This document shows positions 1-18,808 of a DNA stretch of 18,808 nucleotides, one piece after another (position 1 is the stretch's first letter; each line of letters opens with the position of its first letter). The position numbers were made by a program, and so were the translations under genes. The DNA lies in the IMG/VR virus record IMGVR_UViG_2531839477_000015, positions 1-18,808 of that record. One strand, 5' to 3'. This DNA comes from a virus. Taxonomy: Duplodnaviria; Heunggongvirae; Uroviricota; Caudoviricetes. Below the pieces are notes generated by a model that was not told where the DNA came from, ran no database searches, and saw nothing but the letters and a program-made list of their open reading frames with translations.

Positions 1-1284
1 TTACTTCTTCGCCTCTGCAACCACTTTACTACCCACGCCGCGGTTATTGTATTCCCACATGCGGTTGTAGTTAGTGTCATTCAGATTGCGCTGTATTTCG
101 TCGTTATCATCTACGCTGCCGGTATTACCCGCAAACGGACGATTAGAGATCACCGCATCGGCCCACGGTTTAGCCGTGTTAAAACCTTCGTTGATGGCGC
201 TATCACGGATCACCACCTGACCGTTGGTATTGGCATCAACATCCAGCGAGCGGCCCAGTTGCGCCACACCATCACCGAAAGCATTGAAACGGCTGTTTAC
301 GGCGAGGAAACCGTAGTAAATGTTGGACAGCGTAGCCGGTGCAAACACATACGCTTCTTGCTGAGTACGTGAGTTCACCACGCGGAATTCGGTGTTATCG
401 AACACCACTGCGCCGCGACCAGAAACGATATCCACATCCCCTTCAATGTAGCTGTTGGTCACCAGCGTACGCGGCTGACGATTCGTTTCCAGACGGTTCT
501 GCACACCGCTGTTGGTGACAAAGAAGGTGTTCTGACGACCGAGAATGTTAACGTTGTTAATCTGTACCTGGTCACCATCAGTACGCAGTGCCACCGCCGG
601 ATGGTTACCTGCATCTACGCTATCGCCCAGCGTGTTTTCGATGGTCAGATTTTGCAGTTGCAGGCCATTGTTTTGTGACCAGAAGACCGCAGAGCAGAGA
701 ACACCGATACTGTCGCTGCGTTTGCTCTGGCAGCTATCGTACATATACCACGCTGGTTTACCTGGCATATATTTGCCGCGCGGGTTGACGTCGTGACGCC
801 AGTCGGCAGGGCTCATGCCACCATCAAGGGAAAGCCCAATCTTCACATCAATCGGTTTTTCACCTGTACCGTACAGAGTAATTCCACCCGGAGCGGCAGG
901 GACATATACCGTTCCCTGATACTCACCAGGCATCACGGCAATATACTGGCGCTTGTTGGTACGCTTGATAATTGCCGCATCTACCGCCGCCTGAATCGTG
1001 GTATGCGTTACACCTTGAGTGCCCGCCGGGCCGACAACAAAGTCAGGTTGCGCAGGCAGGGTAATCGGGGAAGGATTCCACGCTGCAGCACCTGGTGTCA
1101 GGGATGCAAAATAGTGTTGAGCATCGAAATTCTGCGCTTCTTTTGCCGACAGAATCGGGCGAGAAGAGGTACCAGGCGCGGTTTGATCAGAAGGACGTTG
1201 ATCGGGCGGGGTTGAGCTACAGGCGGTCAGCGTCACGCCAAAAGCCAATGCCAGCGCCAGACGGGAAACTGAAAATGTGTTCAC
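1..1284 (-). CDS. ybhC: YbhC outer-membrane lipoprotein (pectinesterase-fold acyl-CoA thioesterase); host gene flanking attB-lambda
   Basis: 427-aa ORF; GTG start at 1282-1284 with GGAG 6 nt upstream; signal peptide plus lipobox LTAC; recognised from memory as E. coli YbhC; stop TAA at 1-3. Confidence 0.9.
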   Translation of the reverse strand: MNTFSVSRLALALAFGVTLTACSSTPPDQRPSDQTAPGTSSRPILSAKEAQNFDAQHYFASLTPGAAAWNPSPITLPAQPDFVVGPAGTQGVTHTTIQAAVDAAIIKRTNKRQYIAVMPGEYQGTVYVPAAPGGITLYGTGEKPIDVKIGLSLDGGMSPADWRHDVNPRGKYMPGKPAWYMYDSCQSKRSDSIGVLCSAVFWSQNNGLQLQNLTIENTLGDSVDAGNHPAVALRTDGDQVQINNVNILGRQNTFFVTNSGVQNRLETNRQPRTLVTNSYIEGDVDIVSGRGAVVFDNTEFRVVNSRTQQEAYVFAPATLSNIYYGFLAVNSRFNAFGDGVAQLGRSLDVDANTNGQVVIRDSAINEGFNTAKPWADAVISNRPFAGNTGSVDDNDEIQRNLNDTNYNRMWEYNNRGVGSKVVAEAKK

Positions 1285-1330
1285 AGGTTGCTCCGGGCTA
1301 TGAAATAGAAAAATGAATCCGTTGAAGCCT

Positions 1331-1345
1331 GCTTTTTTATACTAA
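1331..1345. other. attL common core GCTTTTTTATACTAA
   Basis: Exact 15-bp lambda att core; left flank TTGAAGCCTGC matches the attB B arm, right flank GTTGGCATTATAAAAAAGCATTGCTTATCAATTTG matches the attP P' arm. Confidence 0.95.
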
Positions 1346-1418
1346 GTTGGCATTATAAAAAAGCATTGCTTATCAATTTGTTGCAACGAACAGGTCACTA
1401 TCAGTCAAAATAAAATCA
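1346..1418. promoter_or_regulatory. attL P' arm with Int arm-type binding sites
   Basis: Lambda P' arm sequence with tandem arm-type motifs CAGGTCACTAT / CAGTCAAAAT / AAAATCATTAT immediately before the int stop codon. Confidence 0.8.
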
Positions 1419-2489
1419 TTATTTGATTTCAATTTTGTCCCACTCCCTGCCTCTGTCATCACGATACTGTGATGCCATGGTGTCCGACTTATGCCCGAGA
1501 AGATGTTGAGCAAACTTATCGCTTATCTGCTTCTCATAGAGTCTTGCAGACAAACTGCGCAACTCGTGAAAGGTAGGCGGATCCCCTTCGAAGGAAAGAC
1601 CTGATGCTTTTCGTGCGCGCATAAAATACCTTGATACTGTGCCGGATGAAAGCGGTTCGCGACGAGTAGATGCAATTATGGTTTCTCCGCCAAGAATCTC
1701 TTTGCATTTATCAAGTGTTTCCTTCATTGATATTCCGAGAGCATCAACATGCAATGCTGTTGGGATGGCAATTTTTACGCCTGTTTTGCTTTGCTCGACA
1801 TAAAGATATCCATCTACGATATCAGACCACTTCATTTCGCATAAATCACCAACTCGTTGCCCGGTAACAACAGCCAGTTCCATTGCAAGTCTGAGCCAAC
1901 ATGGTGATGATTCTGCTGCTTGATAAATTTTCAGGTATTCGTCAGCCGTAAGTCTTGATCTCCTTACCTCTGATTTTGCTGCGCGAGTGGCAGCGACAGG
2001 GTTTGTTGTTATATGGCCTTCAGCTATTGCCTCTCGGAATGCATCGCTCAGTGTTGATCTGATTAACTTGGCTGACGCCGCCTTGCCCTCGTCTATGTAT
2101 CCATTGAGCATTGCCGCAATTTCTTTTGTGGTGATGTCTTCAAGTGGAGCATCAGGCAGACCCCTCCTTATTGCTTTAATTTTGCTCATGTAATTTATGA
2201 GTGTCTTCTGCTTGATTCCTCTGCTGGCCAGGATTTTTTCGTAGCGATCAAGCCATGAATGTAACGTAACGGAATTATCACTGTTGATTCTCGCTGTCAG
2301 AGGCTTGTGTTTGTGTCCTGAAAATAACTCAATGTTGGCCTGTATGGCTTCAGTGATTGCGATTCGCCTGTCTCTGCCTAATCCAAACTCTTTACCCGTC
2401 CTTGGGTCCCTGTAGCAGTAATATCCATTGTTTCTTATATAAAGGTTAGGGGGTAAATCCCGGCGCTCATGACTTCGCCTTCTTCCCAT
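1419..2489 (-). CDS. int: Lambda-type integrase (tyrosine recombinase)
   Basis: 356-aa ORF MGRRRSHERRDLPPNLYIRNNGYYCYRDPRTGKEFGLG...DKIEIK, recognised as lambda Int; adjacent to attL; 23-nt overlap with xis as in lambda. Confidence 0.97.
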   Translation of the reverse strand: MGRRRSHERRDLPPNLYIRNNGYYCYRDPRTGKEFGLGRDRRIAITEAIQANIELFSGHKHKPLTARINSDNSVTLHSWLDRYEKILASRGIKQKTLINYMSKIKAIRRGLPDAPLEDITTKEIAAMLNGYIDEGKAASAKLIRSTLSDAFREAIAEGHITTNPVAATRAAKSEVRRSRLTADEYLKIYQAAESSPCWLRLAMELAVVTGQRVGDLCEMKWSDIVDGYLYVEQSKTGVKIAIPTALHVDALGISMKETLDKCKEILGGETIIASTRREPLSSGTVSRYFMRARKASGLSFEGDPPTFHELRSLSARLYEKQISDKFAQHLLGHKSDTMASQYRDDRGREWDKIEIK

Positions 2490-2685
2490 TTCTGATCCTC
2501 TTCAAAAGGCTACCTGTTACTGGTCGATTTAAGTCAACCTTTACCGCTGATTCGTGGAACAGATACTCTCTTCCATCCTTAACCGGAGGAGGGAATATCC
2601 TGCACTCGCGTACCCATCGACGAACTGTTTCAAGGCTTCTTGGGCGTCGCTGGCGTGCGTTCCACTCCTGAAGTGTCAAGTACAT
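2467..2685 (-). CDS. xis: Excisionase
   Basis: 72-aa ORF MYLTLQEWNARQRRPRSLETVRRWVRECRIFPPPVKDGREYLFHESAVKV..., recognised as lambda Xis. Confidence 0.95.
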   Translation of the reverse strand: MYLTLQEWNARQRRPRSLETVRRWVRECRIFPPPVKDGREYLFHESAVKVDLNRPVTGSLLKRIRNGKKAKS

Positions 2686-2708
2686 CGCAAAGTCTCCGCA
2701 ATTACACG

Positions 2709-2733
2709 CAAGAAAAAACCGCCATCAGGCGGC
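2709..2733 (-). terminator. Intrinsic terminator on the minus strand, upstream of xis
   Basis: Minus-strand RNA AAGCCGCC-UGAU-GGCGG followed by UUUUUU (plus coordinates: stem 2719-2723/2728-2732, A-run 2712-2717). Confidence 0.5.
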
Positions 2734-2798
2734 TTGGTGTTCTTTCAGTTCTTCAATTCGAATATTGGTTACATTGTTTTCATATATGAATAAATAAA

Positions 2799-2978
2799 TT
2801 AGCTTTTTTCGTTGCCTTCGCGTTCTTTATTAATTTTGACAAAATCGTTTTTACCACGCTCTCCAAATGCGTCTTTAGAGTCGTTGTATCCGCAATCGCA
2901 GCACACATAATCATCAGACCATCCACGCATTGTTTTTTCTTTTGCAATATTTCCAGAACCGCATTTTGGACAAGACAT
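2799..2978 (-). CDS. Small zinc-ribbon protein (hypothetical)
   Basis: ATG at 2976-2978 preceded by GGAGG 7 nt upstream (the track's longer ORF begins at a TTG); two Cys pairs CPKCG...CCDCG; 59 aa. Confidence 0.55.
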   Translation of the reverse strand: MSCPKCGSGNIAKEKTMRGWSDDYVCCDCGYNDSKDAFGERGKNDFVKINKEREGNEKS

Positions 2979-3074
2979 ATCACTACCTCCAAAGCATGAG
3001 TGAGATGACAACGTAACATTGATTGGAGATTAACAATAGATTGCTGATGTAAAAGATATGTATAAGCTTCGCTT

Positions 3075-3707
3075 TCAAAGTGGAGGCTCTGGTAGCGGCA
3101 TCCAGTGTGACGGCTCACATACCCCCTCAACACCATTCATGTAAAAGAATTGAAATAACCCTTTACCTTTGTGAAACCCTACCATCTGCTCTTTTGTGTC
3201 TGAGCAATAAACCAAAACATCTTCTTCGCTTGGCATTCGCTCACTACAGCTTATCCAACCATCCGGAGTTACCGGAGAGTTGCCGGGTTCTTTAATGTGC
3301 AAGCGAGGCTCACCATCTTTTGGCTCAGGCCACTGGCGCTCCATGATAATCTTCAATTTATCTTCCATAGCAACGGTAATTTCAGCATCGCTGATGCCAG
3401 CACGGCGCTGTGCATCCCACAACAGAAACTGCATATCAGCCCACTCGCTAAGATCGTCTGGTTCGGCTGCGGCTTCCAGTGCCTCTTTTGAGAGATGTTT
3501 CAGCGGAACAATGGGGCCAACGCAGCCAAATGTGGAGTCAGACCATTTGGCATACTCGTGGCGAATCTGTTCGCGTTCCAGTGATGCCAGCGCAATTCGT
3601 GCCAGTTCTTCCGCTTCTTCTGCTGGCAGTACAACGTTGCTACCAGGTCCGTATGTTTCGCGCCACTGCTTGATTGTCAGTAGTCGCTCTTTGGTCATAG
3701 TGGTCAT
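3075..3707 (-). CDS. DUF551-like phage protein (hypothetical)
   Basis: Start trimmed to ATG 3705-3707 (MTTMTKERLL...) with AAGGAG upstream; C-terminus WISCSERMPSEEDVLVY...HWMPLPEPP resembles the DUF551 signature. Confidence 0.65.
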   Translation of the reverse strand: MTTMTKERLLTIKQWRETYGPGSNVVLPAEEAEELARIALASLEREQIRHEYAKWSDSTFGCVGPIVPLKHLSKEALEAAAEPDDLSEWADMQFLLWDAQRRAGISDAEITVAMEDKLKIIMERQWPEPKDGEPRLHIKEPGNSPVTPDGWISCSERMPSEEDVLVYCSDTKEQMVGFHKGKGLFQFFYMNGVEGVCEPSHWMPLPEPPL

Positions 3708-3708
3708 A

Positions 3709-4230
3709 TCACTCTCCTTTGATGCGAATGCCTGTTGCAATGCTGTTTATGATGCTGTCAGTGCATGGGGTAGAAAGCTGGGCATCTCCAGCAATTTTCA
3801 TGACCTCAACATCTGCATATCGAATACCGAGGTGTATCAGACCGGCTATGCCTGACTTAAGCCGAGCATTTTCCATAAATAGAACCTTTGCCCGCTGTTT
3901 TTCTGCTTCAAGCTCAACTCTCAGCTTCCCTACCGTTAGCGCAATCTCCTCGTTCTCCTGGTCGCGAGATTTGATGTATTGCTGGTTTCTTTCCCGTTCA
4001 TCCAGCAGCGCCTGCACTACTTCAGGGTTGAAAGCTGCGATATAACGAGCGTTGTTCTCTGCGTTGTTCTGTCCATCAAAGCCGGTCCATTTGATAACGT
4101 CTTCACATCGTTTATCACCAGGTGTATGCACCGCATATGTACCAGTACCAGACGAAATAAATGCGACCCATTCACCCTGTGTTGCCAGTTGCGCCGCCTC
4201 ACGCAGTGCCTGATAGTCAATCTTGCTCAC
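3709..4230 (-). CDS. Ead/Ea22-like protein
   Basis: GTG start at 4228-4230 with AAGGAGG 6 nt upstream; N-terminus SKIDYQALREAAQLATQGEW typical of Ead/Ea22-like prophage proteins; coiled-coil middle. Confidence 0.65.
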   Translation of the reverse strand: MSKIDYQALREAAQLATQGEWVAFISSGTGTYAVHTPGDKRCEDVIKWTGFDGQNNAENNARYIAAFNPEVVQALLDERERNQQYIKSRDQENEEIALTVGKLRVELEAEKQRAKVLFMENARLKSGIAGLIHLGIRYADVEVMKIAGDAQLSTPCTDSIINSIATGIRIKGE

Positions 4231-4522
4231 TGGTTGCCTCCTTTGCTGGGCTTTCGAATGTATCAAACTCAAACAACTTAACTACGTCATCAAACAGGAC
4301 ATAATCGCCATCAGAATCTTCAGTCATGTCAGCGCCACAATCCTGACCGAACGAGTCACAACCATCCATATCAAGCTCGTATCGCTTGAGTTTTGCGATA
4401 TTTGATAAATTCAGCGCCAGTACAGCAAGGTCATAAACCTCATCAGCGGTATACCCGGCACCATGCCCATACATTTCAATACGGGATATGATTTCTTCTA
4501 CACGTTGTTTTGTGATCGTCAT
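4217..4522 (-). CDS. Hypothetical acidic protein (101 aa)
   Basis: ATG at 4520-4522 with AGGAAGGTGAG upstream; co-oriented and tightly packed within the pL operon. Confidence 0.55.
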   Translation of the reverse strand: MTITKQRVEEIISRIEMYGHGAGYTADEVYDLAVLALNLSNIAKLKRYELDMDGCDSFGQDCGADMTEDSDGDYVLFDDVVKLFEFDTFESPAKEATSEQD

Positions 4523-5745: not shown

Positions 5746-6225
5746 TTAAATTGCGTGAATAGCGTGACGAGGGAATGGGAGAGTTACTGGTTCCTCGTCT
5801 GGGTAGATAGGTTTGTTATGTTTGTGCCACTCGACATGACATGACTTGCAGAGCCACATCACATCGGTTGGTTTGCTGTAGTCGCAGTGGTGCGCCTGTG
5901 GTTTACATTCTGATCCGCAGCACTCACATTGTGGTGGTCGGATTAGCTTACCGTCGCGCAAAAAATTACCCACAATGATGTGGGCTTTTCTTTTCCATGG
6001 GTTGCTCTGAATGAACCGCTTTTTGGCTGCGTTACACCGTTCTCTTCCGCGTTCCGATGATTGATATTCTCTCCTTGCTGATACTCGATGTGGCAATCCA
6101 GCGCGTTCTTTGTCGTATTCAGCCAGGCAAGCCCGGCAAGCGGCAGTTAATCCATCTCTGGATGCTCTTCTGATTTGAAAGTCCCTTTCTTCCTTCTGTT
6201 GATGGCATCTTGAGCAGACTTTCAT
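5746..6225 (-). CDS. HNH-family endonuclease with extra Cys pairs
   Basis: C-terminal CECCGSECKPQAHHCDYSKPTDVMWLCKSCHVEWH fits the HNH/zinc-finger pattern; ATG 6223-6225 with GGAG upstream. Confidence 0.6.
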   Translation of the reverse strand: MKVCSRCHQQKEERDFQIRRASRDGLTAACRACLAEYDKERAGLPHRVSARREYQSSERGRERCNAAKKRFIQSNPWKRKAHIIVGNFLRDGKLIRPPQCECCGSECKPQAHHCDYSKPTDVMWLCKSCHVEWHKHNKPIYPDEEPVTLPFPRHAIHAI

Positions 6226-6234
6226 ATTCAGCTC

Positions 6235-6708
6235 CTAGAACGGAATATCCGAATCGTCAAAATCCATAGGTGGTTCGCTGTGATTCCCCTGCTGCTGAGA
6301 TTGCTGTCTTTGTTGCTGACCGTTATTTCGCTGAGGTGAAGACTGTTCATTGCCTCCTTGCTTGCCACCAAGCATTTTCATGGTTCCACCAACGCCCACG
6401 ATGACTTCGGTAGTGAACCTATCCTGTCCGCTTTGATCCTGCCATTTTCTTGTCCGTAATTTGCCTTCAAGATAAACCTCTGAGCCTTTTCGCAGATATT
6501 CGCTGGCAATTTCTGCCAGTTTCCCGCTCATTACCACGCGGTGCCACTCCGTCTGCTCCTTTTGCTCTCCAGTTTGCTTATCACGCCATTGTTCTGACGT
6601 AGCAACTGTAAGGTTTGCAAATGCCGTTCCTGATGGTGAATATCTGATTTCTGGATCATGCCCAAGGCGACCAATAATGATCACCTTATTTACGCCTCTA
6701 CTTCCCAT
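6235..6708 (-). CDS. ssb: Single-stranded DNA-binding protein
   Basis: N-terminus [23 protein letters not shown]...TEWHRVV, Gln/Gly-rich linker and C-terminal [12 protein letters not shown] tail, matching SSB. Confidence 0.93.
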
Positions 6709-7416
6709 TTATGCCGCCTGTTTTAGTTCGTTAACTCTGATGTTCATTACCTGAACGCATTTAGCCTGCGCCTCCTCGTTGCCAGCCATTAATTGCCAGT
6801 CACGCTGATAACGCTCGATGAGTTTTTTCTTGTCAGTTTCTGTTGATGCATAATCGCTGAAGTCTTTCAGGATTTGTTCGCAGTCAACCGATGGAGATTT
6901 CTGGTTGGTATTTTCTGGTGATGGTTTGTTATCTGATGCTGGGATTGCCCATCCCGGCAGCGATGGAGGGAGCCAGTAAAATCCTGTTCCATCCTTGAGT
7001 TTTGCCCTGTGCCATCCCTGCTTTTTATCGAGAGATGTTTGTGCGAAACCTTCCTCAAGGTTATACAGATACCGACCGATTCCCCACTGAACGGCAGCGC
7101 GCTTCATTGCACCGGAACGACCACCTTTGACGGCTTCTACCTGCGTGTTTTCAGCAGCATCCCATTTGGTTACCCATTCGGAATCAATCTTGATTGATAT
7201 GCCGCATTCAACTCCGCCGTTGTTGGGAATATCGCGGTATTCATTGCGCCATCCTGCTTTGCCGCAAACATCGTCCAGGCGTTTCATGATTGCCCTGTTC
7301 GTGACATAAGCCAGCACCATAGCCCACACCTTTCCATCGCGTGTTTTACCGCTTTGCTGTATTCGCCATTCGATATCTTCAGGGCTGAATGGCTCATCGA
7401 ATTTGTTCAAATCCAT
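6709..7416 (-). CDS. Rad52/22-type single-strand annealing protein (recombinase)
   Basis: Motifs NRAIMKRLDDVCGKAGW and GGRSGAMKRAAVQWGIGRYLY match the Rad52-family signature; sits directly upstream of ssb. Confidence 0.75.
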   Translation of the reverse strand: MDLNKFDEPFSPEDIEWRIQQSGKTRDGKVWAMVLAYVTNRAIMKRLDDVCGKAGWRNEYRDIPNNGGVECGISIKIDSEWVTKWDAAENTQVEAVKGGRSGAMKRAAVQWGIGRYLYNLEEGFAQTSLDKKQGWHRAKLKDGTGFYWLPPSLPGWAIPASDNKPSPENTNQKSPSVDCEQILKDFSDYASTETDKKKLIERYQRDWQLMAGNEEAQAKCVQVMNIRVNELKQAA

Positions 7417-7942: not shown

Positions 7943-8017
7943 GGGTAACTCCTTCTGTTTGATTGCATAACGAAAACGCCTCGAGTGAAGCGTTATTGGT
8001 ATGCGGTAAAGCCGCGC

Positions 8018-8329
8018 TTAGGCGGCTGATGTTTCTTCTTTCAGGCTTTCGAGATATTTACGTGGGTCGTCGTAACATTGGCATTCGCTATACCAATCCA
8101 CCCAGCGATCAGTAAGCCCCATATCTGATAAATCTTCATCGGTAAGGCTCTCATCCCACATCTCAAGGCCGTTAGCATTGCAGTAATCAGGCTTGATGTT
8201 GTTGTCATACTGAAAGGCGTCATAATCAGCCAGTGCGTCCATCAGGCGAACACCCTCTTCAACACTTGCCACTTCTACAATGAACGGCTTCATAGGTACT
8301 TGCGGGATATGCCAGACACGTAATTTCAT
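8018..8329 (-). CDS. Hypothetical acidic protein (103 aa)
   Basis: Start trimmed to ATG 8327-8329 (MKLRVWHIPQ...) with GGAGGA upstream. Confidence 0.55.
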   Translation of the reverse strand: MKLRVWHIPQVPMKPFIVEVASVEEGVRLMDALADYDAFQYDNNIKPDYCNANGLEMWDESLTDEDLSDMGLTDRWVDWYSECQCYDDPRKYLESLKEETSAA

Positions 8330-8341
8330 ATATCCTCCGTC

Positions 8342-8370
8342 AAAAAAATTGCCCTCACATTGGAGGGCAA
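8342..8370 (-). terminator. Intrinsic terminator (tL-type) on the minus strand
   Basis: Minus-strand RNA UUGCCCUC-CAAUGU-GAGGGCAA followed by UUUUUUU; stem 8351-8356/8363-8368, U-run from plus A-run 8342-8348. Confidence 0.6.
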
Positions 8371-8430
8371 AGAAGATTTCCAATAATCAGAACAAGTCGG
8401 CTCCTGTTTAGTTACGAGCGACATTGCTCC

Positions 8431-8458
8431 GTGTATTCACTCGTTGGAATGAATACAC
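8431..8458. repeat. Inverted repeat (9-bp arms GTGTATTCA/TGAATACAC, 10-nt spacer)
   Basis: Perfect 9-bp inverted repeat directly 3' of the 156-aa gene stop; no U-tract follows. Confidence 0.5.
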
Positions 8459-8472
8459 AGTGCTTATTCGTA

Positions 8473-9731: not shown

Positions 9732-9817
9732 TATTTTTTCGGTGTCTGCTTGTTCAGTGCTTTTTATGCGGGATATGTGAAGTGGATCCCGATAGCTATT
9801 GCTGCCGGGATTATAGG

Positions 9818-10186
9818 TTAGTCAGCGAAGGTTAAGACGAGAATTACCTTAATGATATCTGCTACAACAGACACGGCCATAGATAAACCAAAGACAATCC
9901 AAGCCATATAGATGTCTTCACTACCATCGTATAGAGTTCCGTAATCACTGGTGTAAGGCGTAAATGTCGCGCCTTGATACAACAGGTATAAGCTTGAACC
10001 ATAGAGGATAAATGCAGATATCCCTTGTATTGCTATGATCACTAGAATCATGAAACGAGCTGATCTATGCGCCCAAGCCTGGCTTATTTTTTCTGATAGA
10101 GATTTCGCAATAAAAGCATGCGCTAAGCCGTAAATTGTCGAGATTGCCAACATCCCAAAAAAGCTTGCTATAGCGGTTCCAACCAT
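9818..10186 (-). CDS. Small polytopic membrane protein in the rex position (downstream of cI)
   Basis: Start trimmed to ATG 10184-10186 (MVGTAIASFFGML...) with AAGGGG upstream (the track start is TTG); three or four hydrophobic helices; no recognised family. Confidence 0.65.
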   Translation of the reverse strand: MVGTAIASFFGMLAISTIYGLAHAFIAKSLSEKISQAWAHRSARFMILVIIAIQGISAFILYGSSLYLLYQGATFTPYTSDYGTLYDGSEDIYMAWIVFGLSMAVSVVADIIKVILVLTFAD

Positions 10187-10203
10187 AATCGCCCCTTGCG
10201 TGA

Positions 10204-10920
10204 TCAAACCAGCCTTAGTTTTGTCTCAATTGCAACGCCTATAATCTTGCAGTTTCCATTGATTGGCACGAGAGGCCATGCAGGATTAAGTCCCTTGAGG
10301 TATTTATTTCCGCCGTCGATTATCAGCTTCTTGAATGTTGCTTCGTTAGAGTCAGAAAGTTTTGCTATGACCAAGCTGCCGTTGATCGCCTCCCTTCCGG
10401 TATCGAAAAGAACGAATGTTCCCTCTGGAATGCTTAACCCAACCGGTGCCGTCATTGAATCACCTTCCACTTTAAGCCAGAACGCATTACCTTGAATATG
10501 CGCGTCAGACTCAAGCCAAACATCTATGTCTTTAATGGTGTATGGTTCGCATGCTTCACACCACGAGCCAGCCTGGATACTGCTTAACACCGGATACCTC
10601 TTTCCTGCTCTGTATTCCCCTGCATACCTTACGTTGGCATCGCTCTTAAGGCTTTCTGCCTGTTCTGCAACCTTGGCAGCAATTGACTGGCTAAAATCAG
10701 CAATTGAGACTTGCAACAGTCGTGCAAAACCAGATGCAACCTCAACGTTTAGCGCGTTTCTGCCATTAAGATAATGCCCTACCGCTCCTTGGGTGATACC
10801 CAGTTCATCCGCGATTGAGTATTGGGTTATCCCCAATTCTTTCTTTTTTGACTCATACAAAGCCTTAAGCCGCTTAGCGTCTTCGAGCTGTTCTGTCGTC
10901 AGTGATTTTTTATTTTCCAT
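10204..10920 (-). CDS. cI: CI-type prophage repressor (HTH + LexA/S24-like autocleavage domain)
   Basis: N-terminus LTTEQLEDAKRLKALYESKKKELGITQYSIADELGITQGAVGHY parallels lambda CI; C-terminal domain with conserved Ser/Lys context (WLKVEGDSMTAP ... TFKKLI); divergent from cro across the operators. Confidence 0.93.
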   Translation of the reverse strand: MENKKSLTTEQLEDAKRLKALYESKKKELGITQYSIADELGITQGAVGHYLNGRNALNVEVASGFARLLQVSIADFSQSIAAKVAEQAESLKSDANVRYAGEYRAGKRYPVLSSIQAGSWCEACEPYTIKDIDVWLESDAHIQGNAFWLKVEGDSMTAPVGLSIPEGTFVLFDTGREAINGSLVIAKLSDSNEATFKKLIIDGGNKYLKGLNPAWPLVPINGNCKIIGVAIETKLRLV

Positions 10921-10931
10921 AGCTTAATTCT

Positions 10932-10996
10932 AATAGCTAAGGTACTTAAACTAAAAATACCCTGAGTATTGATTGCTTTGAATACCTGTAGTATTC
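10932..10996. promoter_or_regulatory. OR operators (OR3-OR2-OR1) with divergent pRM and pR
   Basis: AATAC-N5-GTATT at 10956-10970 and 10981-10995, degenerate AATAG-N5-GTACT at 10932-10946; centre spacing 24-25 bp; possible leaderless pRM with -10 TAGAAT (plus 10927-10932) about 7 nt before the cI ATG. Confidence 0.6.
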
Positions 10997-10997
10997 T
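10969..10997 (+). promoter_or_regulatory. pR promoter (putative)
   Basis: -35 TTGATT (10969-10974), 17-bp spacer, -10 TATTCT (10992-10997), the same -10 hexamer as pL; overlaps OR1/OR2. Confidence 0.55.
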
Positions 10998-11026
10998 TTG
11001 TTCATGGTTAATAACGGAGAGTGCAT

Positions 11027-11221
11027 ATGATTCGAATGACACTTGCCGATTACGCCAAAATCCATGGACAGGCTAAAGCAGCCAGTGACTTTGGTGTAAT
11101 CCAGTGCGCTATCAGCAAGGCCATTCTGGCAGGCCGTAACATTATGGTTACGGTAAAGCCTGATGGCAGTGTGATTGGAGAGGAGGTTCGTCCTTTCCCA
11201 AGCAACAAGAAAAACAAATAG
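11027..11221 (+). CDS. cro: Cro repressor
   Basis: [33 protein letters not shown]...[13 protein letters not shown] parallels lambda Cro (…YQSAINKAI…EEVKPFPSNKK); ATG 11027 with ACGGAGAG upstream. Confidence 0.85.
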
Positions 11222-11227
11222 TAACAC

Positions 11228-11270
11228 CGCTCTTTAACAGTCATGGTCCTCATTCCCGCCGAAATGCGGG
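11228..11270 (+). promoter_or_regulatory. nutR (boxA CGCTCTTTAACA + boxB CCCGC-CGAAAT-GCGGG)
   Basis: boxA 11228-11239 matches the boxA consensus; boxB hairpin 11255-11270; located 7 nt after the cro stop. Confidence 0.75.
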
Positions 11271-11329
11271 AATACAACGCGCATCAGTTGGTGCGCATAA
11301 CTTCTTATTTGTTAAGGAAATACTTACAT

Positions 11330-11608
11330 ATGCAACTTACAAGTACTCGCAAGAAAGCGAATGCAATTACAAGCAACATCCTAAATCGAATTGCTGTACG
11401 TGGTCAGCGAAAGGTTGCTGATGCATTAGGGATCAATGAATCACAAATTTCGCGATGGAAAGACAGCTTTATCCCAAAGATGGCCATGCTTCTGGCTGTT
11501 CTTGAATGGGGAGTTGTTGATGATGAGATGGCGAGACTTGCTCAGCAGGTGGCATCGATTCTCACAAAAGAAAAACGCCCAGCTGTTGGTAGCAGTCTGG
11601 ACGCTTAA
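11330..11608 (+). CDS. cII: CII transcriptional activator
   Basis: Start trimmed to ATG 11330 (upstream AAGGAAATACTTACATATG matches the lambda cII initiation region as recalled); ...SQISRWKDSFIPKMAMLLAVLEWGVVDDEMARLAQQVASILT parallels lambda CII. Confidence 0.9.
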   Translation: MQLTSTRKKANAITSNILNRIAVRGQRKVADALGINESQISRWKDSFIPKMAMLLAVLEWGVVDDEMARLAQQVASILTKEKRPAVGSSLDA

Positions 11609-12047: not shown

Positions 12048-12193
12048 TGACAAAACCACTCAGTCCTTACCAGGACAAAATTCACAAACACATACTACGT
12101 GATCGCTTCCTGTCCAGCTTCAAGCAGCCTGGTCGATTCCGGGCTGAGTTGGAAAAAGTGAAGCTGATGCAGAAGGAGAAAGGTCATGAGTAA
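12047..12193 (+). CDS. Small ORF (48 aa), translationally coupled
   Basis: Not in the track. ATG 12047 overlaps the upstream stop (TAATG) with GAGGAGG 5 nt upstream; translation [48 protein letters not shown]; 3' end overlaps the O-like start. Confidence 0.4.
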
Positions 12194-13046
12194 TCTTGCA
12201 ACCGTAACACATTTAAGGCCTTCACAACGGCCTGTGGAGCGTCGTGTGGCAGAAGTTGAAGATGGTTATACCCGTCTTGCAAATGCCCTGTATGAAGAGC
12301 TTATCGGCGCAGATTTAACGAAAAATCAGAGCAAGGTTGCCCACGCCATATGCCGTAAAACATACGGCTACGGTAAAAAGATGGATCGCATCTCTGATAG
12401 TCAGTTAGCTCAAATTACCAGGCTGCCAAGACAGAAGGTAAACAAGGCCAAGAATGAGCTTATCGCGATGAAGGTTATCCTTCGCGAAGGCCAGCAAATC
12501 GGGCCTAACAAGAACATCGAGGAATGGCAAATAGAAGGGTGTCACTACTCTGGTGATAATGTCACTGCATTGGTGACAAAAAGTGTCACCAAAACGGTGA
12601 CAGCGCTGTCACCAAAACAGGGACACACAAAAGAAACTATTACAAAAGAAAAAAGAAATAATAAAAACACTATGTCCGAAAGTGTTCGGACGGAGTGTGA
12701 AAAATCACATGACCGTCACGAAGAAACCGACAAGGCATTCGAGGAAATATTCTGGTGTGCAGGCATGCGGAAAGCCGGGAAGAAAAACGCAGCTTCGGCA
12801 TTCAGAACACAGTTCAGGGAATGGCGTAAAACTACCAGGGGTACGGCAAGCGAGTTTGCCACGATGCTGGCAGAAGACATCGCATGCAGGAATGGTAAGC
12901 AGTTCGGATTCGACAGGTTGTTACCATCGAGCTACCTGAACGGTCAACGCTGGAACGACGAGAAGCCAGAAACTATTCAACCACAATCCAAACCATCATC
13001 CGCAATCACCGTATCGAAAACTGGCTACGTGTTTTTCGACAGGTGA
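12186..13046 (+). CDS. Replication initiator, lambda O-like N-terminal domain with unrelated C-terminal domain
   Basis: N-terminal region [58 protein letters not shown]...GPNKNIEEW parallels lambda O; iterons inside the gene; C-terminal half not O-like. Confidence 0.85.
12551..12672. repeat. Putative ori: iteron cluster plus AT-rich tract inside the O-like gene
   Basis: Six alternating copies of GGTGACA/TGTCACC-type heptamers between 12551 and 12622 (tggtgataa, tgtcactgc, ttggtgacaaaaa, gtgtcaccaaaac, ggtgacagcgc, tgtcaccaaaac), followed by the A-rich tract 12628-12672. Confidence 0.6.
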
Positions 13047-13153
13047 ACCATGAAATCAAAAATCAAATCGCTACTGGTCGCTGGTTATAACCACGGCTGG
13101 TTAAGTATTTCGTTTGTCGATTTCTGGTTTAAAAATCTCAATCTGAGGGAATC

Positions 13154-13648
13154 ATGATGAGCCTTGAAGTTGGAGAATATATACCTGGTTATGAGGGTAA
13201 ATACTCTGTAACCAAAGACGGTCGTGTTTATTCACATTTAAGAGGCAGGTTTTTGAATCCATCTCCGGATAACAAGGGTTATCTAAGAGTCACTTTGTGT
13301 TCCGATGGGATTCAGAAGACGTTAAAAGTTCATCGTCTTGTAGCTCAATTATTTATCCCAAATCCGTATTGCAAGCCAGAAGTAAATCATATCAACGGCG
13401 ACAAATCGGATAACGCCATTTGGAACTTGGAATGGTGTACCTGCTCAGAGAATTTAAAACATGCTTTTAGCATCGGACTGAAAAGCGCAAAGGGAGTTTT
13501 TAATGGTAGGGCAAAACTATCTGAAACTGATGTGATTGATATCAGGAATTCTGTTGGTATGAAACTAAGCGAACTATCCACTAAATACGGAGTGAGTGAA
13601 ATGCAAATTTCCACAATCCGCAGAGGAAACGCATGGAGGCACCTTTGA
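13154..13648 (+). CDS. HNH homing-type endonuclease (NUMOD4-like N-terminus, HNH_3 core, C-terminal HTH)
   Basis: YIPGYEGKYSVTKDGRVYS...HRLVAQLFIPNP...VNHINGDKSDNAIWNLEWCTCSEN; by-eye AT-rich; sits between the O-like gene and the primase-helicase. Confidence 0.8.
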   Translation: MMSLEVGEYIPGYEGKYSVTKDGRVYSHLRGRFLNPSPDNKGYLRVTLCSDGIQKTLKVHRLVAQLFIPNPYCKPEVNHINGDKSDNAIWNLEWCTCSENLKHAFSIGLKSAKGVFNGRAKLSETDVIDIRNSVGMKLSELSTKYGVSEMQISTIRRGNAWRHL

Positions 13649-15525
13649 GTCCATCAGAACTTAGCGACCTGCTTTGGGCGCAGGTTGACAGGGTGGCTCC
13701 GCACCTGTTGCCAAACGGCAAGAAAGAGGGGCATGAGTGGGTTGCCGGTAACGTCAACGGTGACAAGGGAAACAGCCTTAAGGTCAACCTTAGCGGCAAG
13801 AAAAAATGGGCTGATTTCGCCGAGGGAGACGGCGGTGACATGCTTGATTTGTGGATGGCATGTCGTGGAATTAACCTGCATCAGGCTATGCAGGAAGCGA
13901 AAGCATTTCTCGGTATCAAGGATGACGATCACCATTTCGATGCCAAACGTGAGAAGAAATTCTCCAGACCTGATCGCAAGAAAATCGCCCGCTACGTTAC
14001 CAGGACAGAATCCCATCTTGAGTACCTGCAATCGCGTGGCATATCGCCAGAAGTCGTAAAGCGCTACGAGGTTGTCAGCGGCAAGGTGTGGAATGGAGAA
14101 CGAGAACTGGATGCTCTGGTGATTCCGTACAAACGCGATGGTGAGTTGTTGCAGGTCAAGCGAATCAGCACTGAGCGCTCGGACGGGAAGAAAGTCATTA
14201 TGGCAGAAGGTGATTGCGAACCTTGTCTGTTCGGATGGCAGGCTCTGGACGCTGGCGTGAGGGCGGTTGTACTTTGCGAAGGCGAAATTGATTGTATGAG
14301 CTATGCGCAATACGGCATCTCGGCGTTATCCGTGCCGTTTGGTGGCGGGAAAGGCGCTAAGCAACAGTGGATTGAGTTTGAGTATCACAACCTCGACAGG
14401 TTTGAGGAAATATTCATCTCGATGGACGTTGATGATGTTGGTCGTGAAGCCGCAAGGGAAATCGCAAGCCGACTCGGTGAACATCGTTGCCGTCTTGTTA
14501 CTCTGCCGTACAAGGACATCAACGAATGCCTGATGAACGGTGTTACCGAGGATGAAATCTGGCAGTACATCGGCACGGCATCCTACTTCGATCCTGAAGA
14601 ACTCTACAGCGCGCGAGAGTTTTACCAGGACACTATCAACGCTTTCTACGGCAAGCAGCAGTATCTGTTTAATCCACCGTGGGAATCTCTGGCAGATAAA
14701 TTCCAGTTCCGTGAGGCCGAGTTGACGCTGGTCAATGGTGTGAACGGTCACGGAAAAACGGAGGTTGTCGGGCATATGGCACTTGAGGCAATGCGTCAGG
14801 GGGTGAAGACGTGCATCGCGTCACTTGAGCTGAAGCCTGGTATTCTCCTTAAGCGCCTTACCCGTCAGGCAACGTGCTGCAAGATGCCGCCAGTGCTGGA
14901 AATTGACTCTGCATTTAAATTTTATGACGAAAGACTTTGGGTGTTTGGCCTGACCGGAACGGCGAAATCCGACAGGCTGATCGAAATATTCGACTACGCT
15001 CGCCGCCGATACGGGATCCAGTTATTCATCATCGACAGCCTGATGAAATGTGGCATAGGCGACGATGACTATAACGGGCAGAAGGCGTTTGTTGACTCGA
15101 TTTGCGACTTCAAAAACAAAACAAACTCCCACGTCATTCTCGTTACTCACTCGCGAAAAGGAGACAGCGAAGAAAAACCAACCGGGAAAATGGACGTAAA
15201 AGGCTCTGGAGCGATAACAGACCTGACAGACAACCTTTTCATCATCTGGCGTAACAAGGCTCGCGAGAGAGCGTTACAGAGAGTTCAGAGTGGTGAAAAG
15301 ATGTCAGAGAAGGACGAACAGCTACTGGCATCTCCGGCATCTGTTTTGATGCTTGAAAAACAACGTAACGGCGAAGGTTGGGAAGGTGGCGTCCCGTTGT
15401 TCCTTGACGAGCAATCGCACCAGTTCCTGCAACTTGAATCAGGATCGCCATATAGCTACATCGCCAATATGCCGAAATCGGAATATGACGAGGCGTGGCG
15501 ACAGGAAAACGTGACGGAGTATTAA
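13633..15525 (+). CDS. Bifunctional primase-helicase (Toprim primase + DnaB/SF4-like helicase)
   Basis: 630 aa; Toprim-like VVLCEGEIDCMS; Walker A LVNGVNGHGKTEV; Walker B-like LFIIDSLMK; occupies the lambda P position. Confidence 0.85.
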   Translation: MEAPLSPSELSDLLWAQVDRVAPHLLPNGKKEGHEWVAGNVNGDKGNSLKVNLSGKKKWADFAEGDGGDMLDLWMACRGINLHQAMQEAKAFLGIKDDDHHFDAKREKKFSRPDRKKIARYVTRTESHLEYLQSRGISPEVVKRYEVVSGKVWNGERELDALVIPYKRDGELLQVKRISTERSDGKKVIMAEGDCEPCLFGWQALDAGVRAVVLCEGEIDCMSYAQYGISALSVPFGGGKGAKQQWIEFEYHNLDRFEEIFISMDVDDVGREAAREIASRLGEHRCRLVTLPYKDINECLMNGVTEDEIWQYIGTASYFDPEELYSAREFYQDTINAFYGKQQYLFNPPWESLADKFQFREAELTLVNGVNGHGKTEVVGHMALEAMRQGVKTCIASLELKPGILLKRLTRQATCCKMPPVLEIDSAFKFYDERLWVFGLTGTAKSDRLIEIFDYARRRYGIQLFIIDSLMKCGIGDDDYNGQKAFVDSICDFKNKTNSHVILVTHSRKGDSEEKPTGKMDVKGSGAITDLTDNLFIIWRNKARERALQRVQSGEKMSEKDEQLLASPASVLMLEKQRNGEGWEGGVPLFLDEQSHQFLQLESGSPYSYIANMPKSEYDEAWRQENVTEY

Positions 15526-15554
15526 ATGACCATCTACATCACTGAGCTAATAAC

Positions 15555-15586
15555 AGGCCTGCAGGTAATCGCAGGCCTTTTTATTT
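15555..15586 (+). terminator. Intrinsic terminator (tR2-equivalent) after the replication genes
   Basis: Perfect 8-bp stem AGGCCTGC/GCAGGCCT (15555-15562 / 15571-15578), 8-nt loop, then TTTTTATTT. Confidence 0.8.
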
Positions 15587-15602
15587 GGGGGAGAGGGAAG
15601 TC

Positions 15603-16019
15603 ATGAAAAAACTAACCTTTGAAATTCGATCTCCAGCACATCAGCAAAACGCTATTCACGCAGTACAGCAAATTCTTCCAGACCCAACCAAACCAATCGT
15701 AGTAACTATTCAGGAACGCAACCGCAGCATTCGGCAAAATGCACGCCTTCACGCGATGCTATCTGAAATAAGTAAGAAGGCTACATATCATGGAAAAGCA
15801 AGAAATATTGAGTTTTGGAAGGGGTTATTCGTTTCTGGTTGGCAGATTGCAACCAACCAGCACCCTGAGATTATATCAGGGTTAGAAGGTGAGCTAATAA
15901 ACATCAGAGAGAGTACGGCGACTCTATCTGTAAAAAAAATATCCGAAATAATGGACTACATAGAAGCATATTGTGCCATGAACTCAATTCATCTTAGCGA
16001 ATGGAGGAATTATGATTGA
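15603..16019 (+). CDS. ninB: NinB (Orf-family recombination mediator)
   Basis: MKKLTFEIRSPAHQQNAIHAVQQILPDPTKPIVVTIQERNRS matches the lambda NinB N-terminus as recalled; remainder is a diverged homologue; the track start at 15585 is TTG. Confidence 0.85.
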   Translation: MKKLTFEIRSPAHQQNAIHAVQQILPDPTKPIVVTIQERNRSIRQNARLHAMLSEISKKATYHGKARNIEFWKGLFVSGWQIATNQHPEIISGLEGELINIRESTATLSVKKISEIMDYIEAYCAMNSIHLSEWRNYD

Positions 16020-16614
16020 GGTTTGGGTAGATATCGAAGGAATTCCATTTTATCAGGTTAGCAATAAAGGAAATTTCAGGTCTATTACGAGGGAAATTAC
16101 AGTAACATCAACCAGACAGAGGCCATATAAGAAAATAATTAATGGCACTAGCGTAAAACCATTCAAGTGCAAGTCGACAGGATATCTTCAAATAAAGGTA
16201 TACGGTAAGAAATACAGCGCCCACAGGATAGTTGCGAAAGCATTCTGTACAGGGTTCTGTGATGGCTTGGTAGTTAATCACAAAAATGGGCAAAGAGATG
16301 ACAATAGGGCTGAAAACCTTGAATGGGTATCTCATTCTGAAAACTCAAAGCACGGATATAAACAAAATGGAAGAATACCTATATCGCTAGGTAAATTTAG
16401 TGGTGATCATCCTGCCAGTAAAGCTGTTATTTCTACTGACATGAAAACTGGGGAGGAGGTTTATTATGAAGCAGCTATGGATGCTGTCAGAGAAGGATTT
16501 GATAGTTCGTCAATTAGTCGTTGCTGTAATGGCGAAAGCTCATATCACAAAGGAAGATTCTGGCGATTTGCAAATGAAACAATGAAAGCGAGATGGGGAG
16601 ATCGGGCTGCATGA
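16012..16614 (+). CDS. HNH homing-type endonuclease inserted at the ninB 3' end
   Basis: NUMOD4-like GIPFYQVSNKGNFRS and HNH_3 HRIVAKAF...VNHKNGQRDDNRAENLEWVSHSEN; AT-rich by eye; C-terminal KARWGDRAA equals the lambda NinB C-terminus as recalled. Confidence 0.8.
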   Translation: MIEVWVDIEGIPFYQVSNKGNFRSITREITVTSTRQRPYKKIINGTSVKPFKCKSTGYLQIKVYGKKYSAHRIVAKAFCTGFCDGLVVNHKNGQRDDNRAENLEWVSHSENSKHGYKQNGRIPISLGKFSGDHPASKAVISTDMKTGEEVYYEAAMDAVREGFDSSSISRCCNGESSYHKGRFWRFANETMKARWGDRAA

Positions 16615-17138: not shown

Positions 17139-17311
17139 GGCGACAGCGACGAAGTTTCACCGACATCATCTGCGAAAACTGCAAATACCTTCCAACGAAA
17201 CGCTCCAGAAATAAACGCAAGCCAATCCCAAAAGAATCTGACGTAAAAACCTTCAATTACACAGCTCACCTGTGGGATATCCGGTGGCTAAGATATCGTG
17301 CGAGGAAATGA
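17135..17311 (+). CDS. ninE: NinE
   Basis: [58 protein letters not shown] matches lambda NinE as recalled; AGGAGG 5 nt upstream; ATGA overlap with the methyltransferase stop. Confidence 0.85.
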
Positions 17312-17313
17312 CA

Positions 17314-17655
17314 ATGGATTATTCACAGTTAAGTGATTTTGAAATTAACAGAATGGTAGGAGACATAATTTTTAAAGGCCTTTGGGCAAGTAAACCGGAA
17401 ACATCAGGGAATAACACCAACAAATGGTATTACGGAAATGCTGATACAACTTTTGAGCCATTAAATCATTTGCCTGACTACTGCAATGATCCGAGCGCTT
17501 CATGGCCGATTATTGAGAAATACAGGATTTCTATCTTAGACCAGTTAACTGAATGGTGTGTGGATGCAAAAGGCGTAAGCCCAATATTTGATACCAGACC
17601 TCTCCGCGCCGCCATGATTGTCTTTCTCCTGATGCAGGAGGCCAATAATGCTTAG
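17314..17655 (+). CDS. nin-region hypothetical protein (possibly NinX/DUF2591-like)
   Basis: ATG 17314 ([16 protein letters not shown]...) with GAGGA 7 nt upstream; family assignment is tentative. Confidence 0.55.
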
Positions 17656-17842
17656 CCCATCTCAATCCCTTCAATACCTGAAAGGAAGCATAGAGCGGGC
17701 TTCAATGTGCACAGAGTGGATTCTATCTAGGTTTAGCGCATACAGAAGATTGCCGGTAAAGGGCATGCCAAGCAAGTCGATGCTGCATATGCAAAAGAAT
17801 GCGCGCTGGAAGGTATGGCGAGAACACAGGTTATGTGGCTGA
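17648..17842 (+). pseudogene. Chimeric ninF-like 5' fragment fused to non-homologous sequence
   Basis: First ~19 residues [19 protein letters not shown] resemble the lambda NinF N-terminus as recalled; the rest lacks the NinF Cys motifs; another frame (17737-17865) encodes ...[26 protein letters not shown], resembling the YbcO C-terminus. Confidence 0.4.
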
Positions 17843-17861
17843 AAGAGGGGATTATTAAGGC

Positions 17862-18224
17862 GTGAATACCTACAGCATCACATTACCTTGGCCTCCGAGC
17901 AATAATCGCTATTACCGCCATAATCGCGGGCGCACGCACGTCAGCGCAGAGGGGCAGGCATACCGCGATAACGTCGCCCGAATCATTAAAAACGCAATGC
18001 TAGATATCGGCCTGGCTATGCCTGTGAAAATCCGCATTGAGTGCCACATGCCGGATCGCCGTCGCCGTGACCTGGATAATCTGCAAAAAGCCGCTTTTGA
18101 CGCACTCACTAAAGCAGGTTTCTGGCTGGATGATGCTCAGGTCGTTGATTACCGCGTTGTGAAGATGCCTGTTACCAAAGGTGGGAGGCTGGAACTGACC
18201 ATCACCGAAATGGGGAATGAATGA
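17862..18224 (+). CDS. rusA: RusA Holliday-junction resolvase
   Basis: 120-aa [40 protein letters not shown]...[15 protein letters not shown], recognised as RusA; GTG start. Confidence 0.9.
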
Positions 18225-18361
18225 TGTTTGAGTTTAATATGGCAGAACTTCTTCGCCACCGCTGGGGGCGTCTGCGCTTATATCGTTTCCCCGGTTCTGT
18301 TTTGACCGATTACCGAATACTGAAGAATTACGCCAAAACACTGACAGGAGCAGGAGTATGA
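18221..18361 (+). CDS. Small protein (46 aa), YlcG-like
   Basis: Not in the track. ATG 18221 overlaps the rusA stop (ATGA); translation [46 protein letters not shown]; same position as ylcG after rusA in the DLP12 prophage. Confidence 0.45.
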
Positions 18362-18445
18362 AGTCAGAGATAACAATCAACTAATACTGTTTTGTTGATT
18401 TTTGCTTGTAATTGGCGTTCTGGTCTGATTTTGTGGAGTAAGTTG

Positions 18446-18808
18446 ATGCGTGATATTCAGATGGTTCTGGATCGTTGGGGAGCATGGGCGGCGAGTGATA
18501 GTTCAGGAGTAGATTATTCTCCTATAGCTGCTGGGTTTAAAGGGCTTCTTCCCTATACAAGCAAAACACGTCAGGCTTGTTCAGATAGTGATGCATTAAT
18601 TATTGAAGGTTGTCTTGCACGTCTAAAGCAAAAAAGACCTGATGAGCATTCGCTTCTTGTGGCACATTATTTATACAGAATATCCAAGCGTAAGATTGCA
18701 AAGGCGCGTGGAAAGGATGAGAAACTAATACGCATTGAGATACAGATGGCTGAGGGGTTTATTGATGGATGCCTTTCAATTCTGGATGTTAAACTTGAAA
18801 TGGATTAG
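18446..18808 (+). CDS. Antitermination protein Q (phage 82 / QuuD-type family)
   Basis: MRDIQMVLDRWGAWAASDSSGVDYSPIAAGFKGLLPY... typical of this Q family; ATG 18446 with GGAG 7 nt upstream (track start is TTG); stop TAG at 18806-18808. Confidence 0.75.
   Translation: MRDIQMVLDRWGAWAASDSSGVDYSPIAAGFKGLLPYTSKTRQACSDSDALIIEGCLARLKQKRPDEHSLLVAHYLYRISKRKIAKARGKDEKLIRIEIQMAEGFIDGCLSILDVKLEMD

Follow-up and report, generated by a model that had tools for sequence, protein, structure and literature searches.

A lambda integration cassette next to a non-lambda early region at attB-lambda

The attL junction beside ybhC

The window, i.e. the whole stretch of 18,808 nucleotides that was analysed, begins with a host gene and continues across an attachment site and the int and xis genes into the early-left, immunity, replication and nin genes of a phage (Table 1). 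The ORF at its left end carries the ybhC annotation wherever it was matched in E. coli chromosomes, and ybhC is the neighbour of attB-lambda on the gal side. Downstream of the host DNA, the 15-bp att core was recovered as an exact match at 1331-1345. It is present in a single copy, and a search of the window for a second one at up to 2 mismatches gave none.

Table 1. Coordinates of the features in the window (positions count from the first letter of the window)
Feature	Position	Strand	Description or evidence
ybhC (host gene)	1..1284	(-)	full-length ORF, 427 aa, pectinesterase-family putative acyl-CoA thioester hydrolase
Host intergenic DNA up to and including the attB B arm (...GTTGAAGCCT)	1285..1330	(+)	identical to the empty attB of KE58
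att common core (O), 15 bp, GCTTTTTTATACTAA	1331..1345	(+)	equals lambda 27724-27738, annotated misc_recomb
Lambda P' arm: C' half-site, IHF H' site, P'1-P'3 arm-type Int sites	1346..1461	(+)	100% identical to lambda 27739-27854
Predicted P'1-P'3 sites, CAGGTCACTATCAGTCAAAATAAAATCATTAT	~1391-1422		overlap the int 3' end
int, lambda-type tyrosine integrase	1419..2489	(-)	356 aa, 99.4% aa identity to lambda Int
xis, excisionase	2467..2685	(-)	72 aa, 98.6% aa identity to lambda Xis
Predicted CII-binding site TTGC-N6-TTGC, -35 region of the pI (int) promoter	2698..2711	(-)	identical to lambda
60-bp boundary block with t'I terminator	2713..2772	(-)	common to lambda, P22 and Sf101
t'I hairpin CCGCC-TGAT-GGCGG plus U run	2713-2735	(-)	identity to annotated terminator
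eaG homologue, first non-lambda gene	2799..2978	(-)	59-aa zinc-ribbon protein, 100% identical to Sf101 Eag
Recombination module, non-lambda	5746..7416	(-)	Pfam and PHROG matches
Endonuclease-like ORF	5746-6225	(-)	
SSB	6235-6708	(-)	
Rad52/Rad22-family annealase	6709-7416	(-)	PHROG 'Erf-like'
HK620-type immunity region	9818..11608	mixed	97.6% DNA identity to HK620 and HK630
hkaS-like ORF	9818-10207	(-)	
cI	10204-10920	(-)	Pfam HTH_3 and Peptidase_S24
cro	11021-11221	(+)	Pfam Cro
cII	within 11243-11608	(+)	Pfam Phage_CII
Replication module, non-lambda	12186..15525	(+)	Pfam matches
O-like initiator	12186-13046	(+)	
HNH endonuclease	13154-13648	(+)	NUMOD4/HNH_3
Toprim/DnaB-type primase-helicase	13633-15525	(+)	

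The nature of the two flanks was read from a four-way alignment of the window with the empty attB of E. coli KE58 (ybhC-ybhB), lambda attP and the attR of a related lysogen. The core is common to attB, attP, attL and attR in this alignment. To its left, 60 out of 60 bases (1271-1330) agree with the empty attB of KE58; the left flank is therefore host DNA and the junction has the B-O-P' arrangement of attL in a lambda lysogen. To its right, the window follows lambda attP. The lambda segment 27739-27854 includes the annotated Int-binding regions 'int 3' and 'int 4', and the putative Int-binding segment of the window (1346-1461) is identical to it; for the names of the individual P'-arm sites we presume that the established description of lambda attP applies.

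An initial reading of the DNA, referred to here as the first-pass annotation, had placed the prophage on the ybhC side of attB-lambda, and this is borne out by the exact core, by ybhC at 1-1284 and by the B arm shared with KE58. It had also regarded both flanks of the core as lambda, which is correct for the P' arm on the right, whereas the left flank is host B-arm DNA, as it is in a lambda lysogen. Neither tRNA nor tmRNA genes were found in the window, which fits an intergenic, non-tRNA att site, and no Rfam family was found in it at the gathering threshold.

The lambda cassette and the t'I block at its right edge

Window 1331-2772 and lambda 27724-29165 could be aligned without gaps and agree at 99.38% of the positions, the 9 mismatches being at 1748, 1999, 2346, 2511, 2590, 2605, 2608, 2611 and 2644. 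The match begins on the first base of the core and covers core and P' arm at 100%, so that the first mismatch lies within int, and directly beyond either end of the segment (left of 1331, right of 2772) identity to lambda collapses. Int differs from lambda Int by two substitutions, H164P and I248V, which are situated away from the catalytic residues, and all six of the latter (R212, K235, H308, R311, H333 and Y342) are kept. The matching ORF is annotated as integrase in lambda, HK97, HK630 and others. For Xis, a single substitution (G59S) was found despite six nucleotide mismatches in the gene, and the 23-nt overlap between xis and int is the same as in lambda. The predicted CII-binding site reads GCAATTACACGCAA (reverse complement TTGCGTGTAATTGC), again as in lambda, and the HK629 record has the annotation 'putative lambda cII binding site' at the equivalent position. 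Taken together, int and xis were rightly called lambda genes at the outset: both are intact ORFs at 99.4% and 98.6% amino acid identity, and the segment, at 99.4% DNA identity, shows no substantial divergence. The proposed extent needs one correction, since its start at 1331 stands but its end at 2685 does not: lambda identity runs 87 bp further, to 2772.

These additional bases include a 60-bp block that shows no variation among the window, lambda, P22 and Sf101 and has one deviating base in HK629. The P22 record L06296.1 annotates it as 'identical to 29106..29165 in bacteriophage lambda' and marks the t'I terminator in it. Folding recovered the t'I hairpin, but only with a marginal advantage over shuffled sequences (z = -1.9), and we identify the terminator because it is identical to the annotated one of lambda and P22, not because of the fold statistic. 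To the left of the block the window tracks lambda, and to the right it follows P22 and Sf101 into eaG, the DNA of which is 97-99% identical to P22, Sf101 and HK620.

A 118-aa ORF at 2780-3136(-), which overlaps eaG, was considered as the first non-lambda gene and discarded, being out of frame with the true eaG. The same ORF matches phrog_2945 at E = 8e-16, and this family was perhaps derived from miscalled ORFs.

From the positions of these boundaries, the crossover between a lambda int module and P22-like early-left genes likely took place within the t'I block. The sharp edges of the 99.4% block show that the integration module was moved as a unit, as proposed earlier; the right edge of this unit, however, is not at xis, as had been supposed, but in the 60 bp at 2713-2772 that are common to P22-like phages, and its left edge, the P arm at attR, falls beyond the window. 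The same joint is found elsewhere: an identical xis-t'I-eaG joint is present in HK629, Huey, Stx1a_EH2115 and 66 complete E. coli genomes, and across the HK629-type joint (HK629, Huey and 66 E. coli prophages) identity amounts to 99.3% over window 1331-3107.

The non-lambda body of the window

The gene order of the window is lambda-like (int-xis-early left-N-cI-cro-cII-replication-nin-Q) and composed of interchangeable modules. In addition to the genes in Table 1, it contains a P22 gene-17-like Sie, Kil, an N-like antiterminator, NinB, Dam, NinX, RusA and a Q-family antiterminator. With this content, the window's phage fits the lambdoid (mosaic) temperate phages, and it falls outside phage lambda proper (Lambdavirus lambda) with respect to lambda immunity, Red and O/P.

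Comparison of the proteins with those of lambda gave identities of 43% for CI, 63% for Cro, 62% for CII and 50% for NinB, and the O-like initiator reached 49% to lambda O in its N-terminal half only. Counterparts of exo, bet, gam and P are absent among the window proteins compared with lambda, and at E<=1e-3 none of the Rad52-family annealase, the SSB, the primase-helicase, the HNH endonucleases, Dam and RusA had a lambda match. The immunity stretch is of the HK620 type: 9800-11580 aligns with cI-hkaS-cro-cII of HK620 at 97.6%. The statement of the first-pass annotation that immunity, recombination and replication are not those of lambda is in full agreement with these data.

On the DNA level, matches to lambda outside the cassette are confined to short patches. 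Two of them, 3898-4017 and 4182-4231, consist of ea22-like sequence, the others lie at 7966-8026, 8343-8463, 15526-15728, 16584-16614 and 17142-17308, and two stretches in cro and cII match weakly (72-76%). Three patches reach 95-98%, namely 8343-8463 in the ea10/ral intergenic region, 15526-15728 at the ren-ninB border and 17142-17308 in ninE. Like the t'I block, they have the appearance of sequences conserved at the junctions between modules, and the one at 8343-8463 recurs in nearly every related locus of the mosaic map.

Several genes of the body deserve a separate comment. The hkaS-like ORF follows directly after cI, where lambda has rexAB, and a 122-aa ORF occupies the hkaS position beside the exact CI protein in all ten genomic contexts retrieved. 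It matches phrog_6534 (unknown function), had neither a Pfam nor a PADLOC match, and is a candidate for a prophage-expressed gene. More generally, PADLOC detected no known defence system among ten unannotated ORFs.

The NUMOD4/HNH_3 ORF is inserted between the genes of the O-like initiator and the primase-helicase and overlaps the start of the latter. The alignments of three related loci (L002, L007 and L012) reach 13157 and start again at 13657, the 499-bp stretch in between being absent, and a further one (L014) has the stretch. Judged from these alignments, it looks like a homing-endonuclease presence/absence polymorphism. A second NUMOD4-HNH endonuclease of 200 aa with an I-HmuI-like NUMOD domain is encoded at 16012-16614(+) between ninB and dam, and this gene is also found in the related prophage MS 115-1.

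An ORF at 3075-3740(-) combines a dATP/dGTP pyrophosphohydrolase domain (PF04447) and DUF551 in one protein, a two-domain architecture that was also seen in one other locus (L010); the surrounding stretches 3114-3256 and 4018-4258 had no match in any of the retrieved loci. Most database matches stop at about 17350, and for 17353-18808, which contains the distal NinX-like ORF, a 64-aa ORF, RusA and the start of the Q-family gene, no match of at least 90% was obtained in the retrieved loci. Within the mosaic, this section of the nin/Q region is the rarest.

Origin of the mosaic, rival explanations and known relatives

Module swapping is very common and well documented among lambda-like phages. 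In line with this, the ybhC-core-P'-int junction, for which the query needs only about 240 bp, was detected in 1,920 of 5,426 complete E. coli genomes (35%), compared with a lambda-type cI anywhere in only 618 of the 5,426, which indicates that most hosts of the cassette have non-lambda immunity. Among phages, the cassette is found at 98.6-99.8% in HK97, HK106, HK629, HK630, O276, mEp332, ev099, Chlobot, Huey, PDP110P2 and others. The exact CI protein of the window, in turn, adjoins several different integrases at different chromosomal sites, and a look-up of this protein returned 10 different contexts, none of which (0/10) has the window's mosaic. Each module assorts independently in a mosaic map of the window against 16 loci, and a megablast of the whole window against the 5,426 complete E. 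coli genomes yielded a best coverage of 54%. These results are in accordance with earlier surveys, in which the lambda site is among the intergenic integration loci occupied above average and lambdoid integrases are intermingled in the integrase tree (Bobay et al. 2013, PMC3603311). For early-region modules, recent exchange between P22-like and other lambdoid phages was described in the epsilon34 paper (PMC2629481), which for pervasive mosaicism refers to Juhala et al. 2000 (as cited in PMC2629481).

Considering all of these data, we are highly confident that the window represents the left (attL) end of a lambdoid prophage inserted at the canonical lambda attachment site of E. coli, with ybhC and ybhB as its neighbours, and that this prophage has a lambda cassette on a non-lambda early region. 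The cassette comprises about 1.4 kb that are essentially lambda's (core, P' arm, int, xis, pI promoter and t'I terminator). It is joined to P22/Sf101-like early-left genes, an HK620-type immunity region, a Rad52/Erf-type annealase with SSB, and O-like and primase-helicase genes for replication. A plausible origin is homologous recombination within the common 60-bp t'I block, between a phage or prophage with lambda int and a P22/HK620-like phage.

Int together with IHF recombines attP and attB to attL and attR, and Int together with Xis (with IHF and Fis) catalyses the reverse reaction. By the rules of lambda biology, a lambda-type Int and IHF would have joined attP and attB within the 15-bp core to create the B-O-P' junction, and excision would need Int and Xis acting on attL and attR. 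All sequence elements needed for recombination on the attL side are intact; by analogy with lambda the cassette is presumably active, and we infer that the prophage of the window has an attR. Expression of the cassette also looks compatible with foreign regulators, given that the CII site of pI is kept and the resident CII is in the Phage_CII family. The TTGC-N6-TTGC motif is the target of lambda CII and of P22 C1 alike. Transcription from pL, once modified by the N-like antiterminator, would pass t'I and continue into xis and int.

This account of the window has to be weighed against three other explanations. The window could derive from a defective or cryptic prophage remnant that kept attL, int and xis, lost attR or essential late genes and no longer excises as a viable phage. 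Neither the late genes nor attR fall within the 18.8-kb window, and remnants are probably what many of the 1,920 junction-positive genomes contain, as the junction query spans only about 240 bp. On the other hand, every examined ORF is full length across the 17.5 kb of prophage DNA, in which neither an IS element nor a frameshift or truncation was seen. Int, Xis, core, P' arm and pI are intact, and in the closest relative, MS 115-1, the P22-like prophage is complete and has an attR. We therefore consider a remnant unlikely.

An assembly chimera, in which the 60-bp repeat of two prophages of the same genome was collapsed into an artificial lambda/P22-like joint, is far less probable still. It is true that many lambdoid prophages have the sequence at which the joint lies, and that several such prophages are often found in one E. 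coli genome (median of 3 matching places per genome). A repeat of 60 bp is nevertheless shorter than a typical sequencing read, and we rejected this explanation because 66 genomes that were finished independently, as well as HK629 and Huey as isolated phages, have the identical xis-t'I-eaG joint. The lowest probability was assigned to a laboratory lambda hybrid, i.e. an imm-substitution derivative of lambda instead of a natural mosaic. Such hybrids exist with the same int region (lambda imm434, imm21 and h434 imm21), but the early-left, recombination, replication and nin genes of the window are all non-lambda, unlike those of imm hybrids, and lambda matches outside the cassette are short patches only. 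Together with the nine positions at which the cassette differs from reference lambda, the non-lambda body led us to reject a laboratory origin as well.

As the attL end of a lambdoid prophage, the window fixes the left boundary of this prophage, its integration site and its likely excision machinery. This is helpful for prophage delimitation and for predicting the attR junction and PCR primers. It provides a clean illustration of lambdoid mosaicism, with a module edge that falls in a short terminator block common to lambda-like and P22-like phages, and leaves the current understanding unchanged.

Comparison with individual phages and prophages places each part of the mosaic. Lambda itself has the same core, P' arm, CII site of pI, t'I terminator and chromosomal site beside ybhC. 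It differs from the window by nine nucleotides in the cassette and by the entire body, which in the window is non-lambda (CI at 43%, no exo/bet/gam and no P). On the side of the body, HK620, P22 and Sf101 share eaG and neighbouring early-left genes, the gene-17-like Sie and nin genes in patches of 97-99% identity, and HK620 also has an immunity region like that of the window. In contrast to the window, these three phages have other integrases and att sites: P22 integrates at thrW (PMC2629481), and the int gene of Sf101 has 1,179 bp and is on the opposite strand.

The best overall match is MS 115-1 (NZ_CP146665.1), a P22-like prophage between ybhC and ybhB, which covers 54% of the window at 97.9%. 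It shares ybhC-attL-int-xis (98.9% over 1-2770) and the O-like, primase-helicase and nin genes, and differs in its early-left genes, an ERF annealase, another repressor and the lack of the HNH insert (13154-13648 region). This podovirus prophage has a lambda-type attR that consists of a P arm, the core ACTTTTTTATACTAA, the B' arm CTTGAGCGAAACGGG and then ybhB. Such an attR in a P22-like prophage shows that the architecture is viable, which is not proof that the prophage of the window is complete. At the first position of this core (22703-22717 of locus L016), A replaces the G of window 1331-1345. The P arm has diverged from lambda in the 60 bp beside the core and is nearly identical in the P1/P2/sib region. 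Core change and diverged P arm together indicate that the cassette varies more towards the P arm than towards int. The lambda-like P-arm sequence extends over only about 190 bp and ends just past the sib/tI hairpin, beyond which unrelated DNA leads to the tailspike gene. Read from this layout, the portable unit in MS 115-1 is an approximately 1.6-kb cassette bracketed by two terminators.

A further reading of the window has two parts: the exact module mix would be an undescribed lambdoid phage, and the cassette would be a discrete portable unit between two conserved terminator blocks. We hold this combined reading to be possible but rather doubtful. The novelty of the mix is suggested by the fact that coverage of the window by complete E. 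coli genomes does not exceed 54%. As for the terminators, the cassette would have tI/sib at its P-arm end, judging from MS 115-1, and the 60-bp t'I block at its xis end, and both blocks might serve as preferred linkers for homologous recombination, which would allow the cassette to move between the bodies of siphoviruses (lambda, HK97) and of P22-like podoviruses. As the identity of the t'I block is already annotated for P22, novelty would lie only in showing systematically that the blocks are used as linkers.

The two remaining relatives have, respectively, the joint and the immunity pairing of the window. HK629 (JQ182735) has the lambda cassette fused at the 60-bp block to HK620/P22-like early-left genes, as in the window; it differs in the early-left genes further downstream and is classified as Lambdavirus. 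HK630 (JQ086376 / NC_019723) pairs lambda-type int/xis/attP (99.3%) with HK620-type immunity (97.6%), which is the same pairing as in the window, although only 23% of the window is shared and HK630 has Bet/RecT-type recombination and P-type replication genes. The functional-looking cassette is thus already known in kind and, from HK630, in its specific combination, and the mosaic is of the textbook lambdoid kind that sequenced phages already represent.
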